DNA of 64,000 nucleotides from Sedimentisphaerales bacterium. Its GTDB lineage: Bacteria; Planctomycetota; Phycisphaerae; Sedimentisphaerales; SM23-30. The stretch lies in the NCBI GenBank assembly GCA_963663805.2, contig CAXXMR010000012.1, positions 384,001 through 448,000 of the forward strand, written 5' to 3'. A program made the position numbers and the translations under genes. Shown here piece after piece: positions 33,730-64,000 of the stretch. The notes beneath the pieces were generated by a model. That model was not told where the DNA came from. It saw only the letters and a list, made by a program, of their open reading frames with translations, and ran no database searches. Every line of letters begins with the position of its first letter. Position 1 is the stretch's first letter.

Positions 33730-33804
33730 GGTGAGAGTAGCTCAGTCGGCTAGAGCACCAGGTTGTGGTCCTGGGGGTCGCGGGTTCGAGTCCCGTCTCC
33801 CACC
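33730..33804 (+). tRNA. tRNA-His(GUG), integration site of the downstream island
   Basis: G-1:C73; anticodon arm CCAGG-TTGTGGT-CCTGG; GGTTCGAGTCC; A4:C69 mismatch in the acceptor stem. Confidence 0.95.
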
Positions 33805-33996
33805 CTTATATAATCCTATATATAGCAATAGCTTATGCGGGATTTTCTTTGAACTGGACCCGCCAAATTACCCCCAGATGTGAAAATTACTGTGAAAATA
33901 TCTGCTCACTTTTAATCCGGTAAATCCAGATTTGCATAGTGAAACCCTTTTTTGTAGTGTGTCTGTAAAGAGTGCTCAAATATAGGGTTGCAAAAA

Positions 33997-35022
33997 ATGG
34001 CATCATTAAAATATCACAAGGACGTAAAGAGATGGCGAGTCTTCTGGCATGTCACCCTTCCGGACGGCTCAATCGACAAAGGCAGCAGAAGTTTTAAACT
34101 CAAGGATGAGGGGCAAAAGTTCAAGGAGCATTGCGAAAAACAAGGGGCGAAACTAAAAAGAGCCAGGATAGTCAAGGTTCCTCTATTAGACGACGCGGTT
34201 GAGAGTTGGCGGATATTTATGGGCCAGCATACAGAACGAACCCAGAAGATGTACAGTGATGTATTAAGGGATTTCTTAAAATTTGCTTCTAATGACCTTC
34301 TGGCCAGTGACTTAACATCCCAACATATAATGGGGTATTTGAACTCTCTTATAGCTAGAGGCCTGGGCAATAAAAGCGTGAATAATCATTTATGTGCAAT
34401 TAAATCTTTTTGCGGGTATCTGGAAACGAATTACCAGATTCCCAGTTCCGCAAAAAATATTAAGAAATTCAAAGAGGGGGATATTGATGTCTATTTCACC
34501 AATAGAAATGAATACAATCTGATTTTAGAACATTGCGATGATATCGGTGTTGGCTGGATTAGATTTATCGCAAATACTGGCCTGAGGGCGAGCGAGTTTT
34601 GTAATCTGAAATGGGGGGACTATGATGCTGATGCCAGAACCATAACAGTTATTGGCAAGGGCAGAAAAAGAAGGACGATTGGCTTGAATAATATTGCAAT
34701 TACCGTCCTGGAAGACAGGAGAGCGGGCAAGAAGATAAAACTTAAAGACCATATATTTCTTCGCAAAGATGGTTTGCCATTGATTCGCCATACATTGCAT
34801 TATTTTATCTCAAAAGCCTGCTGCGATGCGGGAGTGACGAGTTTTGGCCCTCACACGCTTCGCCACTTTTTTGCTACTGAGCTTCTTAAGGCTGGGATCC
34901 CTATCATCAAGGTTTCTCAACTCATGGGACACAGCAGTGTTACTACTACCCAAAAACATTACTCCCATATCCTCAGCAGCGACGTTGCGAACGCCACCAG
35001 CGTTCTTGAGGCTCTGGGATAG
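33997..35022 (+). CDS. Tyrosine recombinase/integrase
   Basis: TGLRASE (R), GKG (K), HTLRH (HxxR), MGHS, HY catalytic Tyr; N-terminal arm-binding-like segment. Confidence 0.93.
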   Translation: MASLKYHKDVKRWRVFWHVTLPDGSIDKGSRSFKLKDEGQKFKEHCEKQGAKLKRARIVKVPLLDDAVESWRIFMGQHTERTQKMYSDVLRDFLKFASNDLLASDLTSQHIMGYLNSLIARGLGNKSVNNHLCAIKSFCGYLETNYQIPSSAKNIKKFKEGDIDVYFTNRNEYNLILEHCDDIGVGWIRFIANTGLRASEFCNLKWGDYDADARTITVIGKGRKRRTIGLNNIAITVLEDRRAGKKIKLKDHIFLRKDGLPLIRHTLHYFISKACCDAGVTSFGPHTLRHFFATELLKAGIPIIKVSQLMGHSSVTTTQKHYSHILSSDVANATSVLEALG

Positions 35023-36766: not shown

Positions 36767-38308
36767 ATGACAGCCGACCATAAAATCAATCAGGATGAAA
36801 TAAATGGCATTGCCTGGAAAGCCTGCGATACATTTAGGGGTGTGGTGGATCCAGCCCAATACAAAGATTATATTCTGGTAACTCTGTTCTTGAAATATAT
36901 ATCTGATGTCTGGAATGACCGTAAAACCCAATTTGAAAAGCAATTCAAAGGTGATGAAAAGAGGGTTCAACGCCGACTGGAACGGGAAAGATTTATAATT
37001 CCTGATATCCAAATCAAGAATGAAAAGGGAAAAGTTACCGAAACATTCTCTGCAACCTTTGACAGTCTTTATGAACGCAGAAATGCTCCCAATATCGGTG
37101 AATTAATCAATAATGTCCTGGATGAGATAGAAGAGGCTAACAAATCAAAATTGGAAGGGGTGTTCCGTAACATAGACTTCAATTCTGAAGGTAATCTGGG
37201 TCAAACCAAGGAACGAAATGCCCGCTTGAAGCATTTATTGGAGGATTTTGCGGATAAGAAGTTAGATTTGCGTCCTTCGGTGATAGGTGAACATGATGTA
37301 ATTGGTAATACTTATATGTATCTCATCTCCAGATTTGCTTCGGATTCGGGCAAAAAGGGGGGGGAGTTCTATACACCCACTGAAGTTGCTCTGCTTCTGG
37401 CAAGATTAGTCGAACCCCAGGAGGGAGACCGTATATGTGACCCGGCTTGTGGTTCTGCTTCCTTGTTGGTTCGCTGTGCCAATCTTATTGGCTCTCCGAA
37501 CTATTCTCTCTATGGTCAGGAGTCAAACGGTAGCACCTGGGCATTGGCGAAAATGAACGTATTTCTTAACGAAAAGGATAATGCCCGTATCGAGTGGGGC
37601 GATACCATCCGAAATCCCAAACTGATTGAGAAAGACCAGCTCATGAATTTTGATGTGGTGGTGGCTAATCCTCCGTTTTCGCTGGAAAAATGGGGTATCG
37701 AAGAAGCGGAAAGTGACCGTTATCGGCGTTTCCATAGAGGACTCCCTCCCAAAAGCAAGGGCGATTATGCCTTTATTACCCATATGGTGGAAACCGCCAA
37801 TGAAGACGGCGGCAGAGTAGGGGTGATTGTGCCGCATGGCGTGCTGTTTCGAGGAGGGGCAGAAGGCAGGATAAGAACCCAGTTCATTGATGAGAATATT
37901 CTTGATGCTGTGGTGGGACTGCCGAGCAATCTGTTCTTTGGAACTGGGATACCGGCTGCTATCCTGATATTCAAAAAGAGCAGACGTAAAAAGGATGTGC
38001 TGTTCATCGATGCCAGCAGGGAATTTGAGGATGGTAAGAATCAAAACAGGTTAAGACAACAAGATATCGACAAGGTTTATGAGACTTATAAAAAACGCAA
38101 AGCAATAGACAAATATTCTTATATCGCCAGTATAGAAGAGATTAAGGAGAATGATTATAATCTCAATATTCCCCGTTATGTTGATACCTTTGAAGAGGAA
38201 GAGGAAGTGGATATTCCGGCAGTCAAGAAGGAGATAGCAGGGCTGGAGAAGGAACTGGCAACAGTCCAGAAAGAAATGGATGAGTATCTGAAGGAGTTGG
38301 GTCTGTGA
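36767..38308 (+). CDS. hsdM: Type I R-M methyltransferase subunit
   Basis: GEFYTP, DPACGS, NPPF, PHGVLFRG, YNLNIPRYV. Confidence 0.96.
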   Translation: MTADHKINQDEINGIAWKACDTFRGVVDPAQYKDYILVTLFLKYISDVWNDRKTQFEKQFKGDEKRVQRRLERERFIIPDIQIKNEKGKVTETFSATFDSLYERRNAPNIGELINNVLDEIEEANKSKLEGVFRNIDFNSEGNLGQTKERNARLKHLLEDFADKKLDLRPSVIGEHDVIGNTYMYLISRFASDSGKKGGEFYTPTEVALLLARLVEPQEGDRICDPACGSASLLVRCANLIGSPNYSLYGQESNGSTWALAKMNVFLNEKDNARIEWGDTIRNPKLIEKDQLMNFDVVVANPPFSLEKWGIEEAESDRYRRFHRGLPPKSKGDYAFITHMVETANEDGGRVGVIVPHGVLFRGGAEGRIRTQFIDENILDAVVGLPSNLFFGTGIPAAILIFKKSRRKKDVLFIDASREFEDGKNQNRLRQQDIDKVYETYKKRKAIDKYSYIASIEEIKENDYNLNIPRYVDTFEEEEEVDIPAVKKEIAGLEKELATVQKEMDEYLKELGL

Positions 38309-39525
38309 AGGTTGATCTTGTGCATTACAATAATGCTGCTCTTGGGGATAACCCAAAGGAATGGCAATGTGTCCTTATGGACAAAGTTGCTGAACGTGCT
38401 ACAGGGCATACGCCTAACAAAAAGATAAGTAAATATTGGAATGGAGGGATAAAATGGGTTTCTTTAGCAGACTCAAATAAACTTAATGTGCCGGTAATAT
38501 ATGATACGGCTAAAAACATTAGCGATGAAGGGATAAAGAATTCGTCGGCAAGATATTTGCCAAAGGGGACGGTAATCTTACTACGGGATGCTGCCGTTGG
38601 GAAGGTTACGACGCTTGGGGAAAACATGGCAGTTAGTCAACATTTCGTTGCATGGATATGTGGAGAAAAGCTTCATAACAGATATTTGTACTACCATCTC
38701 TATGGGAGAATGAATGAATTTCAGAGAATAGCGGTAGGATCGACCATTGTCACAATCGGAATGGGATATTTTGCTAAAATGAGAATTCTCCTCCCCCCTC
38801 TTCCCGAACAAAAGAAGATTGCTGCTATATTGGGTAAGTGGGATGAGGGGATTGAAAAGCTGGAGAAGCTGATTACGGCAAAGAAGGCACTTAAAAAGGG
38901 TTTAATGCAGCAACTCCTGACCGGCAAAAAACGGTTTAAGGAGTTCAAGGGGCAGAAGTGGAAAAAGATTGAGTTTGGACATCTTGTTTATTTGTCAAAA
39001 AAGAAATACGACCCTAAAAAAAGTGGATATTCTTTAAGATGTATAGAGCTTGAACATATCAAATCAGAAAATGGACAATTGCTGGGTCACATTAATTCAA
39101 ATCAACAAGCATGTGTAAAGAATTATTTTCAAAAAGGCAACGTTCTTTTTGGAAAATTACGTCCTTACCTCAAAAAATACTATTTAGCCTCTTTTGACGG
39201 AGTGTGCTCAACCGAAATATGGGTATTACAAGCTCTTGAAACGCTTTGTTGTAATCACTTTCTTTTTTATTTAATACAGACCTCGTTTTTTTATCAAGCT
39301 ACTAATGTGACTTCTGGTACAAAGATGCCACGTTCCGACTGGAATTATGTTTCAGAAATTCCGTTTGAGGTCCCATCCTTGGAGGAACAAAAAAAGATTG
39401 CCTCGATTTTAAATGTGGTAGATAACGAGATTGAAATATTAAATCGGAAGCTTGCAGGATTGAAGGAGCAGAAAAAGGGACTGATGCAGAAATTGTTGAC
39501 TGGTAAGATTAGAGTGAAAGTATAA
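38305..39525 (+). CDS. hsdS: Type I R-M specificity subunit
   Basis: Two TRDs with conserved PPLPEQKKIA / PSLEEQKKIA and KKGLMQ.LLTGK segments. Confidence 0.95.
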   Translation: MKVDLVHYNNAALGDNPKEWQCVLMDKVAERATGHTPNKKISKYWNGGIKWVSLADSNKLNVPVIYDTAKNISDEGIKNSSARYLPKGTVILLRDAAVGKVTTLGENMAVSQHFVAWICGEKLHNRYLYYHLYGRMNEFQRIAVGSTIVTIGMGYFAKMRILLPPLPEQKKIAAILGKWDEGIEKLEKLITAKKALKKGLMQQLLTGKKRFKEFKGQKWKKIEFGHLVYLSKKKYDPKKSGYSLRCIELEHIKSENGQLLGHINSNQQACVKNYFQKGNVLFGKLRPYLKKYYLASFDGVCSTEIWVLQALETLCCNHFLFYLIQTSFFYQATNVTSGTKMPRSDWNYVSEIPFEVPSLEEQKKIASILNVVDNEIEILNRKLAGLKEQKKGLMQKLLTGKIRVKV

Positions 39526-55637: not shown

Positions 55638-55692
55638 TATTAATTATAACTAACATATACTCACAGCAAACGTTTCGTAGTGTTTTATATTT

Positions 55693-55731
55693 AGTCAGAG
55701 CATTGGCGATATTTCCGATGCTCTGACTTTG
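55693..55731 (+). terminator. 14-bp hairpin, probable terminator
   Basis: AGTCAGAGCATTGG-N8-CCGATGCTCTGACT then TT. Confidence 0.5.
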
Positions 55732-55784
55732 ATGAGAAGTGCTTTAAACTTTTTTCATAAAAACTTTATCTTCTATTTTTTTTG

Positions 55785-55813
55785 TTGGAAAGTGATTAAT
55801 TTTCTGATAGAAT
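55785..55813 (+). promoter_or_regulatory. sigma70-like promoter P1 upstream of the solitary repeat unit
   Basis: TTGGAA-N17-TAGAAT. Confidence 0.55.
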
Positions 55814-55842
55814 ACTCGAAGTCAGGGGTAAACAACTTCTGA

Positions 55843-55874
55843 CATTCTCAACTGATAGTTGAGTGGGTTGAAAT
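55843..55874 (+). CRISPR. Solitary CRISPR-repeat-like unit (I-C-like geometry)
   Basis: CATT-CTCAACT-GAT-AGTTGAG-TGGGTTGAAAT: 7-bp stem + 11-nt 3' handle. Confidence 0.6.
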
Positions 55875-56035
55875 ATTATAATTATCCAGATGAATTTACA
55901 GTATAATATTTTAGTGCTGTTGAACGATGCTCTCTGAAAAGTGAATAATATAAAATAGTCATTAATATTTTATATCTTATTTTTGGATACGAGTTCTAAG
56001 AAAATGTCAAATCATACATTGGACTCATTTTTTCC

Positions 56036-56064
56036 TTGAAAAGTGAAATACATTTTAGTATAGT
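56036..56064 (+). promoter_or_regulatory. sigma70-like promoter P2 upstream of the hairpin/repeat cassette
   Basis: TTGAAA-N17-TATAGT. Confidence 0.6.
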
Positions 56065-56099
56065 AATGTAAGAATAAAAGTTAATATGAGTTTGTTGAG

Positions 56100-56219
56100 T
56101 TGAGTGTTTGCAGTGTGTTCCATCCTGAAGTAAATTATCATGGTAATCATCAATTATTGATGGGATACAGATAGTTTTCTTGATACACCTTCAGTGTGGG
56201 ATACACTGCGAACACTCAA
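56100..56219 (+). ncRNA. Long stem-loop (putative structured RNA element)
   Basis: TTGAGTGTTTGCAGTGTGTTCCA pairs with TGGGATACACTGCGAACACTCAA (23 bp, 3 G-U); inner CTGAAG/CTTCAG and CATCAA/TTGATG stems. Confidence 0.6.
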
Positions 56220-56258
56220 GAAGTTCCTGTAGAATTTGCTATGTATATAGCAAAGATC

Positions 56259-56343
56259 AGTTTCCCCACGCAAGTGGGGGTGTTCCTATATTAGGATGTG
56301 CCAGGGTTTTAGCAAAACAGTGTCCCCACGTTAGTGGGGTGTT
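56259..56343 (+). CRISPR. Type I-E-like mini-array (repeat-spacer-repeat), no cas genes in window
   Basis: AGTTT-CCCCAC-GCAA-GTGGGG-GTGTTCCT, 31-nt spacer, AGTGT-CCCCAC-GTTA-GTGGGG-TGTT; period 60. Confidence 0.78.
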
Positions 56344-56346
56344 AGA

Positions 56347-56516
56347 TTAACATCTATTATAGATGTTTGGGTTGAAACGAATGTGTTTGTATTGCTTGAG
56401 TTAAATACTTAAGTATCTTAGCCATTAAGGTTAAGTGGATTACAGTGATAGTAGTATTACTATGTTTAAACTTAATGTTTAGGCATCTCAGTCTTTGAGA
56501 TTGAGTGGATTACAAT
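56347..56516 (+). CRISPR. Three degenerate I-C-like repeat units with ~35-nt spacers
   Basis: 7-bp stem / 5-nt loop / 11-nt handle ending at 56378 (TGGGTTGAAAC), 56446 (TGGATTACAGT) and 56516 (TGGATTACAAT); periods 68 and 70. Confidence 0.68.
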
Positions 56517-56553
56517 GCTGTAGTGATTGTTGAGTTTGCTAAACTTGGCAGAA

Positions 56554-56590
56554 GAAGCCATCAGATTAATTTCTGGTGGCTTTTTTGTTT
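56554..56590 (+). terminator. Intrinsic terminator closing the repeat cassette
   Basis: GAAGCCATCAGA-TTAATT-TCTGGTGGCTT followed by TTTTGTTT. Confidence 0.8.
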
Positions 56591-56742
56591 TATATTCCTT
56601 GAGCAAAATATTTTAAAATTATCCTCAAAAGGGGCTGATTAGTGAAAAACAAATAATTAAAATATAAGCATGATCAGGAGTAATTGGGTTATTGCTGACA
56701 CAAAAATAATAAAAAGTTCTCATTTTAAAGGAGATTGAGATA

Positions 56743-57099
56743 ATGAATGAGTTTAAATGTGAAGAATGTGGCTCAATTAAACTGGGCTATAAAAAGTATG
56801 TAAAATGCACTATGCCAGTTGAGATTGCTAATGGGCAAATCACCTATGGGCTATCAACAGTTGATGAAGATAATTATTTGGCCACATGTAATGGATTTTG
56901 CTGTATGGACTGTCAAAGTTTGATCGAATACTGTGGCTGTAACCTTGAAACAGAGGAAGAGCTTAGGGGATATTATAACCTGGATCCAAAATTAAAACAA
57001 CAGCAGCAAGATGAATATGATGATATTATTAAGGCTAAAATTGAGGCTCAGGAAGAACTGGGTCGAGATAAGTTATTATATGAAGAAGAATCCGTTTAA
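56743..57099 (+). CDS. Small Cys-rich (Zn-ribbon-like), acidic hypothetical protein
   Basis: AAGGAG RBS; CEECGS and CCMDC motifs. Confidence 0.7.
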   Translation: MNEFKCEECGSIKLGYKKYVKCTMPVEIANGQITYGLSTVDEDNYLATCNGFCCMDCQSLIEYCGCNLETEEELRGYYNLDPKLKQQQQDEYDDIIKAKIEAQEELGRDKLLYEEESV

Positions 57100-57308
57100 A
57101 TATTTCCCGGCAAAAAAGGAATTTTCTTATTTTTATCGAATATATATATGAACAGAGTGTAGGCTGAGTTGTAATGTTGGCAGCAAGAAAACCAAGACGA
57201 AATTTTAAGAAAGAATATATGATGAATTAATCAGAAGTAACAATCTGGTTTTCTTGCTTTTACCCTGTGTGGCTACACCTGCACAGGGTTTTTATTTTGG
57301 TAAATATA

Positions 57309-61577: not shown

Positions 61578-62722
61578 CTAGTTATGGTGGTGGAATATGC
61601 CTTATGAGTACCGTTGATGCCGATATAATACACTCCATAGAAAACAGTATTGTCTGGGGCAATATACCTTTGGCTGCCTATATTGGAGAGAATATTTATG
61701 TGGGATCTTATGCTGATTTGAATGCCTCATACTGCGATTATGGCAGTTCTGATGGCGTGGCTAGTGTTGTCGGCAATATTTCGGTCGATCCAAAATTTGC
61801 TAGTTCCAGCAGTGATTATCATCTGAAGTCAGTTGGTGGTCATTATGATGTGAGTACAGGTGCTTATATTCCCGATACATTAACCAGCTTATGCATTGAC
61901 GCAGGCGATCCCGCTAGCGTTTACAGCAATGAACCTTCGCCTAATGGTGGCCGGGTTAATATGGGATATTATGGCAATACTACTCAGGCATCAAAGTCAG
62001 ACACTTCGCCACCCGCTAAAGCGACCAACCCAATTCCCAATGATAAATCGGAAAACAATAGTACATCATCTGTCTTAGAATGGACTCCTGGGACGGGAGC
62101 TACGTCACATAGAGTTTATTTTGGGACAGATTCTTCACCTGATTCAGGCGAATTTAAAATTGAACAGAGTACTACGGCCTACGCCCCAGGACAACTCAAT
62201 TCAAGTACAACTTATTATTGGCGCATTGACGAAGTTAATCAATATGGGACCACTAGCGGAGATGTTTGGGAATTCGGGACGGGGTCTCGGATGATCTATG
62301 TTGATGATGTTGCCACGAATGGAAATGGCACCTTGGCAAGTCCTTACAACAGAATCCAGTCTGGTATCAATGCCGCCTCTAGCGGAGATACAGTAATTGT
62401 GCGTAATGGAACATACTATGGCACAAATAACAAGGATCTCTATCTGAATTCGAGTGTAATAACAGTCAAAAGTGAAAATGGCCCTTTTAGCTGCACAATT
62501 GATTGTCAAAACTCCGGGCGAGGTTTCCTATTAAATAATAGCGGTGCATCAAATTCTATAATAAATGGTTTTACTATTAAAGATGGGAACACATCCAACG
62601 GAGGTGGTATATACATATCTGGTACCAATCCAATAGTTGCCAACTGTATTGTAAGAGATAATAACGCCGGTAGCTATGGCGGTGGAGTGTATATCAGTTC
62701 TAGCCAGGCATATACAAAACTT
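61578..62722 (+). pseudogene. Internal fragment of a large secreted parallel beta-helix / FN3-like protein
   Basis: YGGGI repeats, DPKF...DYHL...CIDAGDP, YYWRIDEVN, IYVDD...IQSGINAA; bounded by an IS on both sides. Confidence 0.8.
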
Positions 62723-64000
62723 GTAACACTTTAGCCAAGTGAAGCAGAGAACTCCGCGAGTTTTGGCAATTTGCCGGTTTTGATGTATGTTCGCAGGGCT
62801 TTTTTGATGGTAGCAACCGGGTTTAGGCCGCGTTGTTTCAGGGTAAAAAACACGCTCATCAGCACCGATTGCGTTCGGGCTCCACGGTCGCTGCGGTTGT
62901 TATAGCTGTTCTTTCGCATGATCACCGCGCCGCGAATGCTGCGTTCGCCAAAATTATTATCGAACGGCACCTCGCGATTGCTCAGAAAAGTGAACAGCTC
63001 ATCATGATGGCGTTTCAAACGCTTAATCAACCGCTGAGCTTCCTTGTTCGACCACTCATGCGCGATAATAAGATCCAAGCGTTTTTCGATTCGTTGGCAG
63101 CGCCGCTGGTAAACCGTCGCATCCAGTTCATCGATGCGTTTACGCAGGCGTATCGCGTCGCGAATTAATCGTTTGAGTTTTTTGGAGAACCTCGGCCAAT
63201 CGCCGCTGTGGTCTTTGGCTTTCCAGACTCGCTCCAAATCACGCAGTAAGTGAACCAGGCACTTTTGTTTGGCGCATGACAATACATTGTAAGCATACCA
63301 GAAGTCACTTACGAACACGCCGTTGAAACATTCTTTGATAAATTCCAAAACCACCGGCCCGGCCCGCGACTGCTCGACCGTAAAAATCGTGGCTTGATGG
63401 CTGGTAAAGCACCATAACCAATGCGTTTTACCGTTTACCCGCCAGCCGGTCTCATCGCCGTGCAGGACACCGGCTTTTTGAATGTCCTCGATTATTTCTT
63501 CGTACCAGGCCAGGAGTATATCCGCTAAACGATGCCACATCTGGACTAATCCGCCCGGCGACATCTTAAACCGGAGATGAAAATTAAACACCTCCAGGAT
63601 CTGCGCTATCGTATTGCCCAACGCAAAGTGGAGCCAGGCACACAAAACCACAATACCATTGCCAATAGATGATTTTGGCAGAGCATCGGTTACGATCGGC
63701 TCAACCGCCTTGCGACAGTTCGGACACCAGTCGCGATGAATAACATGCTTTACCGTCTCAACGCGAACATCTTCCGGGATGTCTTCGATGATTCGTTCAC
63801 GTGTGCCGGAACATTTTTTCAGTTCGCCGCCGCAGTCCGGACAACATGAAGCGCGATGTTCTTCGGTACGGTCTATTTGGGTCGGCAGATTGCGGCGAGT
63901 ACCTTGATGCCCTTTTTTACGGCCAAACTTTTTGCCGCGTTTTTTATCTGTTTTGTTCGGCTTGACAAAAACCGGCTTCTGACCTGAGGGACACGAAGGA
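62723..64000 (-). mobile_element. IS66-family element (partial; runs off the window)
   Basis: Terminal GTAACACT at 62723; transposase stop lies just inside the end. Confidence 0.85.
62731..64000 (-). CDS. IS66-family transposase (5' end beyond the window)
   Basis: GRKKGHQG, CPDCGGEL, HGDETGW, VSDFW.AY, QKCLVHLLRD, DNNFGERSIR; frame stays open upstream of the ORF-track start. Confidence 0.92.
   Translation of the reverse strand, partial: PSCPSGQKPVFVKPNKTDKKRGKKFGRKKGHQGTRRNLPTQIDRTEEHRASCCPDCGGELKKCSGTRERIIEDIPEDVRVETVKHVIHRDWCPNCRKAVEPIVTDALPKSSIGNGIVVLCAWLHFALGNTIAQILEVFNFHLRFKMSPGGLVQMWHRLADILLAWYEEIIEDIQKAGVLHGDETGWRVNGKTHWLWCFTSHQATIFTVEQSRAGPVVLEFIKECFNGVFVSDFWYAYNVLSCAKQKCLVHLLRDLERVWKAKDHSGDWPRFSKKLKRLIRDAIRLRKRIDELDATVYQRRCQRIEKRLDLIIAHEWSNKEAQRLIKRLKRHHDELFTFLSNREVPFDNNFGERSIRGAVIMRKNSYNNRSDRGARTQSVLMSVFFTLKQRGLNPVATIKKALRTYIKTGKLPKLAEFSASLG

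Follow-up and report, generated by a model that had tools for sequence, protein, structure and literature searches.

The RNA anti-CRISPRs that have been described to date concern one subtype each, and they were found via near-identity to known repeats. The Racrs (RacrIE1/2, RacrIC1, and RacrIF1; Camara-Wilpert 2023, PMC10651486) are by definition solitary and at least 90% identical to a repeat already known; candidates lying beside a partial repeat were dropped. Sequestration of Cas proteins has been proposed for the Racrs, and the upstream product of RacrIF1 binds Cas6f and Cas7f (PMC10651486). Cracr arrays (Liu et al., 10.1101/2024.10.29.618823) comprise multiplexed crRNA-like units on mobile elements; examples exist for I-E and I-C, and the arrays have distal repeats that are degenerate, as well as a terminator. 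According to that paper, co-encoded units are invariably directed at variants of one type, and at least nine PAM-proximal matches to CreR/CreA spacers are required. CreR/CreA and regulatory mini-arrays, as described by Shmakov et al. (10.1101/2023.03.03.530964), have two repeats and one spacer, with a degenerate second repeat, and either lie within cas loci or copy a mini-array of the host.

Here, we analyze a 64,000-nt stretch of the genome of a Sedimentisphaerales bacterium (hereafter, the window), in which a sequence-only reading had singled out a single-spacer mini-array with two I-E-like repeats, R1 and R2. The pair did not prove to be a stand-alone mini-array: it is a module inside a longer promoter-to-terminator unit (the cassette), whose predicted transcript also includes three I-C-like repeats. 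Like the Racrs, the cassette consists of repeat mimics without cas genes, on a mobile element, with its own predicted promoter and with subtypes that occur in the host lineage; the Cas sequestration that we propose for it is modeled on that of RacrIF1 (PMC10651486). In contrast to the Racrs, five repeats of two subtypes are combined in one unit, with an identity to the repeats of the host's order of 79% for R1 and ~50% for the I-C-like repeats, and the near-identity filter used for the known RNA anti-CRISPRs would therefore discard it. Multiplexed crRNA-like units, a mobile element, degenerate distal repeats, and a terminator are shared with the Cracr arrays, but the cassette mixes I-E-like and I-C-like repeats in one predicted transcript, and its target was not found. 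Similarly, R1 and R2 enclose one spacer and the second repeat is degenerate, as in the mini-arrays of Shmakov et al., whereas the pair lies in an island without cas genes. A literature search, with supplements and most subscription papers outside its scope, found no mixed-subtype mimic transcripts. Judged by its sequence, a cassette in which an integrative island combines I-E and I-C repeat mimics would be new relative to the published single-type RNA anti-CRISPRs.

The I-E-like repeat pair

The tRNA-His and integrase genes, the promoters, repeats, linkers, long hairpin, and terminator-like site of the cassette region, and the 118-aa ORF that are described below lie on the forward (+) strand of the window. 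R1 (56259–56287) has the 29-nt, 5+6+4+6+8 layout that the sequence-only reading had given it, with a 6-bp stem and an 8-nt handle, and both its coordinates and letters were confirmed. The same is true of R2 (56319–56347), which starts 60 nt after R1, and has the identical CCCCAC/GTGGGG stem and a GTTA loop. The R2 handle had been called truncated; it is indeed degenerate and one G is missing, and we can add that it runs into an I-C-like repeat starting at 56347. As a reference for the repeats, a search of 201 genomes from the host's order yielded six Cas6e loci; all of these I-E loci (6/6) have arrays with a 29-nt repeat on a CCCCAC/GTGGGG stem. R1 agrees with the I-E repeat of the order at 23/29 positions and R2 at 18/29, including 17/21 in its intact hairpin part, in keeping with the proposed I-E-type identity of the repeats. 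When the repeats of the order were aligned to 55640–57300, the I-E repeats alone beat shuffles; V-A, II-C, III, and the other repeat types of the order gave no significant match in the cassette.

Between the two repeats lies the spacer-like E2 (56288–56318). Its 31 nt had been judged about one short of typical, and this is a natural but rare length, shared by 4/113 spacers from the host's order, in which the range is 30–35 nt and 75/113 spacers are of 32 nt. The geometry of the pair fits the suggestion that it could yield one crRNA-like product, which would be ~60 nt long (56280–56339).

Had the hairpin pair been a common REP-type repeat, the mini-array reading would have been in doubt. However, exact CCCCAC-N4-GTGGGG occurs at two sites in the 4.75-Mb host genome, namely R1 and R2, and at five sites if one mismatch is allowed, and we therefore ruled out a REP-type repeat. 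A shuffle test of the stem pattern at two mismatches (mean 1.36; at least two sites in 40/100 shuffles) is indecisive on its own; the R1 and R2 hits are both exact and 60 nt apart. No cassette was found with the I-E pattern in 24 genomes of the host's family.

The host island

The pair lies in a low-GC island, where GC content drops from ~0.50 to 0.32–0.43 between ~34 and 60 kb of the window. A tRNA-His gene (33731–33805) at the left edge is the likely integration site and is followed by a tyrosine integrase gene (33988–35022; PF00589, E 1e-32; phrog_1). The cargo includes a type I restriction system, a DinB-type polymerase, a DNA methylase, and a sigma-factor-like gene, and the right end carries IS insertions. 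A search of the host genome found no attR for this island or for the sister island described below. An IS66-family element occupies 62713–64000 of the window and has ~15 near-identical copies genome-wide. The 3′ part of tRNA-His together with the integrase start (33762–34056) is repeated at 94% on another host contig (C8, 251572–251866), which suggests another related integrative element there.

Searches of the host genome for Cas6e, Cas1, Cas7 (two families), Cas5, and Cas8c gave no match above cut-off, and Cas3-HD gave a sub-cut-off match only. By these searches, the cassette sits on an integrase island distant from cas genes, as a Racr would; at 88% genome completeness, and with just 1/14 control genomes positive for Cas6e, the searches do not prove that cas genes are absent. 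A k-mer finder detected no CRISPR-like array of I-E or I-C type in the host genome. On contig C10 (~38220–38600), a GC-rich repeat that is neither I-E nor I-C occurs six times at 55–80-nt spacing, with short variable linkers.

A larger predicted unit with I-C-like repeats

The unit that includes R1 and R2 spans ~520 nt (56036–56594). It is led by a predicted sigma70 promoter, P2 (56036–56064), which is a consensus match only (10/12) and the top of 14 sites in the region, and it ends at a predicted intrinsic terminator-like site (56551–56594) with 15 pairs and a U tract. The fold of the intervening RNA (56065–56600) has a z-score of −10.9. Farther upstream, another predicted promoter, P1 (55785–55813; 9/12 with an extended −10, again a consensus match only), is kept in the sister island and precedes the I-C-like repeat c0 (55844–55874), which has a 7-bp stem and the 11-nt handle TGGGTTGAAAT.

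Within the unit, a long hairpin of 120 nt (56100–56219), with 31-nt arms that are 84% complementary (z −8.2), matches neither the tracrRNA tails of the order nor any Rfam family at gathering score. Located at the 5′ end of the cassette, this near-perfect hairpin might serve as a 5′ protector or be cleaved by RNase III. As an sgRNA-like II-C mimic it was unsupported, with 29/300 shuffles at best; 3/8 of the anti-repeats picked for that test (those of L378, L386, and L393) were not reliable. Next comes a handle-like 8-mer, AAGTTCCT, with the 30-nt pseudo-spacer E1 (together 56221–56258), and E1 contains an 8-bp hairpin.

Directly behind R2 are three 32-nt units, each with a 7–8-bp stem and then an 11-nt TGG(A/G)TT-type handle. 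The first, c1 (56347–56378), has an 8-bp stem followed by TGGGTTGAAAC, a 10/11 match to the I-C handle; the handles of c2 (56415–56446) and c3 (56485–56516) match at 7/11 and 8/11, and c3 is identical in the sister island. The units are followed by the pseudo-spacers C1 (56379–56414, 36 nt), C2 (56447–56484, 38 nt), and C3 (56517–56549), of which C1 and C2 end in an 8-bp hairpin, C2 pairs with its own handle, and C3 has a terminal hairpin. Five repeats of two subtypes (R1, R2, and c1–c3) are accordingly found within 260 nt.

The I-C-like units are built like the I-C repeats of the order, with a short lead, a 7–8-bp stem, and an 11-nt handle, and a spacing of 68 and 70 nt. The handle is placed right behind the stem in four units of the window and two of the sister island. 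We describe the I-C likeness as structural, since the handles match at 7–10/11 positions and the whole units at just 14–17/32 (~50%), with a local alignment that is not significant versus shuffles. The stems are AT-rich and diverged; that of c1 closes with A-U, not C-G, and the c2 and c3 handles have 3–4 changes. According to a review (PMC5965381), Cas5d recognizes the stem base and 3′ overhang, and its cut produces a tag of 11 nt; the recognized parts are mostly retained in the cassette. Genome-wide, 63 sites carry the handle motif, and a stem of at least 6 bp precedes the handle in six, all in the window or sister cassettes, a count that is partly circular because the motif was derived from those same sites. 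In a loose alignment, 11/14 stem pairs stay paired despite letter changes.

Directly after the cassette is an orphan ORF for an acidic protein of 118 aa (56743–57099), which is missing in the sister island save for its last ~60 nt. It is Acr-like by size, charge, and position only: it has no homologue and no Pfam, PHROG, PADLOC, or PDB match, but weak Atlas matches, and no known acr genes were found near the cassette. A further structured non-coding stretch (57135–57300; 13-bp stem and terminator-like hairpin, z −2.9) is retained in both islands and matches no Rfam family at gathering score.

A variable cassette in a sister island

A related island lies beside tRNA-Glu on another host contig, C13. 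The flanks of its cassette are 99.1% identical to those in the window over 1901 nt on the left and 99.6% over 3113 nt on the right. The C13 cassette consists of a promoter, an I-C-like repeat, 34 nt, a second I-C-like repeat, 39 nt, and a terminator, whereas the I-E pair, the long hairpin, and the 118-aa ORF are absent. Given flanks of 99% identity and differing cassettes, we conclude that the cassette is the variable spot of an otherwise conserved block.

Contigs of both cassette forms were present in 4/4 runs (two samples of one study, which may include the source), and in each of these runs a 701-nt contig covers 55814–56514 without differences, which makes an assembly artefact unlikely. 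In one run, X4, there is a second contig variant over 56671–56807 with eight other letters and four gaps, which hints that this sample includes a third island version. The defence cargo of the C13 island (~297400–331000; L006 and L007) differs from that of the window island, and consists of type I restriction genes, a PDC-S06-like gene, a SEFIR-containing Ago-associated gene with a pAgo, RHS-like genes, and two integrase-like genes. It also contains a gene pair that we take to be HipA-like.

Structure, origin, and targets of the linkers

The 38 nt preceding R1 align with the R1 handle plus E2 so well that 1/5000 shuffles was as good. The likeness of E1 to E2 in the spacer part alone is modest (30/5000 shuffles; 75/26045 island windows score as high). 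The E1 unit is thus likely a paralogue of the R1 handle plus E2, and the alignment suggests a duplicated handle-linker-hairpin unit upstream of and at R1; E2 looks more like a duplicate of the segment before R1 than like an acquired spacer.

A terminal perfect hairpin of at least 8 bp is found in 5/6 I-C linkers compared with 0/287 natural I-C spacers, and 25–68 of 2000 shuffles per linker reach such a hairpin. The 3′ ends of C3, C13b, and E1 were chosen by the analyst, and the hairpin was therefore tested free of end choice in C1, C2, and C13a only. In predicted folds, the linkers pair back onto their own handles, and the I-C linkers cover their own seed regions. No terminal hairpin of that kind occurs in C0 or E2; E2 is unstructured (z +0.8) and of normal length, as expected for a real guide.

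The sequence-only reading had seen no convincing match to the spacer in the window, and had called for a search of the host genome and mobile-element databases. In the host genome, no match to E2 was found at up to eight mismatches, in agreement with that view. The database searches found no protospacer either: a 20-letter seed pattern had no match in IMG/VR, and the best matches in phages and plasmids had E values of 2–10. Natural spacers mostly have no database matches.

Search for related cassettes

Several searches for homologues led to no cassette. A DNA search of 100 relatives gave one 33-nt match at chance level; the pattern of stem end plus handle gave 13 single matches in 250 genomes of the order, about the number of the reversed control and none a cassette by eye; and the sigma-like protein led to none in 300 genomes of the class. 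The viral patterns did not lead to a cassette either, nor did the flanking proteins, which were searched for among viruses, metagenomes, and genomes and have 3–5 homologues each, all on short contigs. When the cassette was compared with plasmids and phages by blastn, only short repeat or terminator matches emerged. In a genome-contig scan, 0/108 loci were a convincing promoter-led mixed cassette, and four non-array loci had a stem.

A viral pattern of an I-E hairpin followed within 10–40 nt by an I-C handle matched 16 loci, and none with the handle reversed. In 10/16, the I-E hairpin lies in the loop of a stem that has at least six Watson-Crick pairs and ends precisely where the handle begins; stems of at least seven pairs occur at 9/16 viral loci versus 7/320 control sites. 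An eleventh phage unit (L093) was recognized by eye. Among the 120 matches listed in a metagenome scan, at least 10 non-array loci had the stem; by eye, at least six were convincing (L223, L281, L300, L316, L305, and L255) and four were not. The loci form a group A (L084, L087, L089, L091, L097, L223, L281, L300, and L316) and a group B (L088, L090, L092, L094, L096, and L305), with L093 apart. As the three groups share repeat-like letters only, we count the phage units as three cases, not eleven.

The phage units are non-coding, ~150–200 nt long, and sit among short unannotated ORFs; a long-range I-C-like stem closes on TGGATTGAAAT, with the I-E hairpin nested in its loop. In eight sequences of the largest group, the handle and I-E stem are nearly invariant, the loop varies, and 3/9 pairs of the I-C stem show covariation, with both sides changed. 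The units also share a conserved motif that presumably is II-C-repeat-like. We consider them candidate multi-type RNA anti-CRISPRs. The 16-nt hairpin of the L088 group is identical to that of R2, and the L084 group has the handle followed by a handle-complementary linker and hairpin. Both the phage units and the window place an I-E hairpin and an I-C handle in one short non-coding unit, but the arrangement is nested in the former and tandem in the latter, and BLAST detected no homology between the phage units and the window; the metagenome units have no detectable homology to it either. Consequently, they support a decoy function of the cassette by analogy only.

Seven canonical I-E arrays (L129, L139, L180, L197, L244, L257, and L262) end in an I-C repeat, about one spacer length past the last I-E repeat. 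These ends are possibly hybrid I-E/I-C array junctions.

Possible function of the cassette

We lean slightly toward the view that the cassette is a multi-subtype RNA anti-CRISPR decoy, with the R1/R2 pair as one module of a ~520-nt predicted ncRNA. The sequence provides the repeat geometry, the island context, structured linkers with no target found, and a variable cassette in sisters of 99% identity; from these we infer transcription, cleavage by Cas6e and Cas5c, and Cas sequestration. P2 would fire upon entry of the island into a new host. There, a host Cas6e might cleave both I-E-like repeats at their stem base; the products would be a 5′ piece of ~210 nt, with the R1 hairpin at its end, and the 60-nt crRNA-like piece of 56280–56339. 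Cas5c would cut c1, c2, and c3 into pieces of 68 nt (56368–56435), 70 nt (56436–56505), and ~85 nt. The pieces could then trap Cas6e or Cas5c together with Cas7 in non-targeting or aberrant complexes, and immunity of either subtype would be lowered. As the present host has no detected cas genes, the cassette would matter on transfer. In favor of a decoy, both subtypes occur in the host's order, where I-C is the more frequent (Cas8c in 26/201 genomes; Cas6e in 6/201). Counting against a decoy are the rarity of I-E in the order, Cas8c in 0/24 genomes of the host's family, and E2, which is unstructured and has a normal guide length.

The sequence-only reading had offered three roles for a mature crRNA, namely a decoy, a guide against a competitor, or a guide repressing a cas promoter. 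The first fits best; for the two guides, targets were not found, and E2 resembles E1. The cas-promoter role corresponds to a Cracr-type array, in which guides on host Cascade repress cas or CreT promoters via short PAM-adjacent matches, in addition to crRNA competition. Such arrays are known for I-E and I-C, and have degenerate last repeats and a terminator (10.1101/2024.10.29.618823), E2 is properly framed and unstructured as a guide should be, and matches of 9–10 nt are enough and easily overlooked. However, E2 had no seed of at least 9 nt in seven fetched I-E stretches, and none of the cassette units beat shuffles in intergenic DNA of 6 I-E and 26 I-C loci (best 7/40; the ORF mask left 4.7 kb for the I-E loci). 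These loci also held no convincing CreR-like solitary repeat, and with I-C linkers that fold over their own seeds, we think a Cracr-type array rather unlikely. It is very unlikely, in our estimation, that E2 directs the I-E Cascade of a host against competing phages or islands, or acts as a homing guide. The 8+31+21 geometry is canonical, the sister islands differ in their cassettes, and viral mini-arrays targeting other viruses are known (10.1101/2023.03.03.530964); against this stand the missing protospacer in IMG/VR, phages, plasmids, and the host's own genome, the likeness of E2 to E1, and a tyrosine integrase rather than a Tn7-type machine.

Repeat likeness could also stem from descent or chance, if the cassette were a non-CRISPR hairpin-chain sRNA (for instance a stabilized transcript, or an antitoxin paired with the 118-aa ORF) or a decaying array relic. 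The diverged, AT-rich I-C stems, the host genome without detected cas genes, and the 120-nt hairpin would all agree with such an origin, yet handles placed exactly at the stem base and stems retained while letters change (the 11/14 pairs of the loose alignment), which decay would not produce, argue otherwise. Likewise, no Rfam family was matched at gathering score, and the C13 sister has a cassette without the ORF; a non-CRISPR RNA or relic therefore seems unlikely to us. The layout of promoter, repeats, terminator, and small ORF does resemble type III toxin-antitoxin loci.

For the decoy that we favor, a broader view is one whose merits we weigh as evenly balanced: mobile elements may build modular, broad-spectrum anti-CRISPR RNAs, with mimics of several subtypes, quick turnover of modules, and independent tandem and nested origins. 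One transcript would be cut by the Cas nuclease that happens to be present in the new host, and the design would have arisen independently in three or more phage groups and in an integrative island. The sister islands offer a natural comparison of I-C only versus I-E plus I-C. If functional, the cassette would mean that a single short RNA may dampen Cascades of two subtypes, that structure-only mimics work at ~50% identity, and that current counts of Racrs are too low; an RNA that switches off several type I systems at once would, moreover, be useful as a tool.
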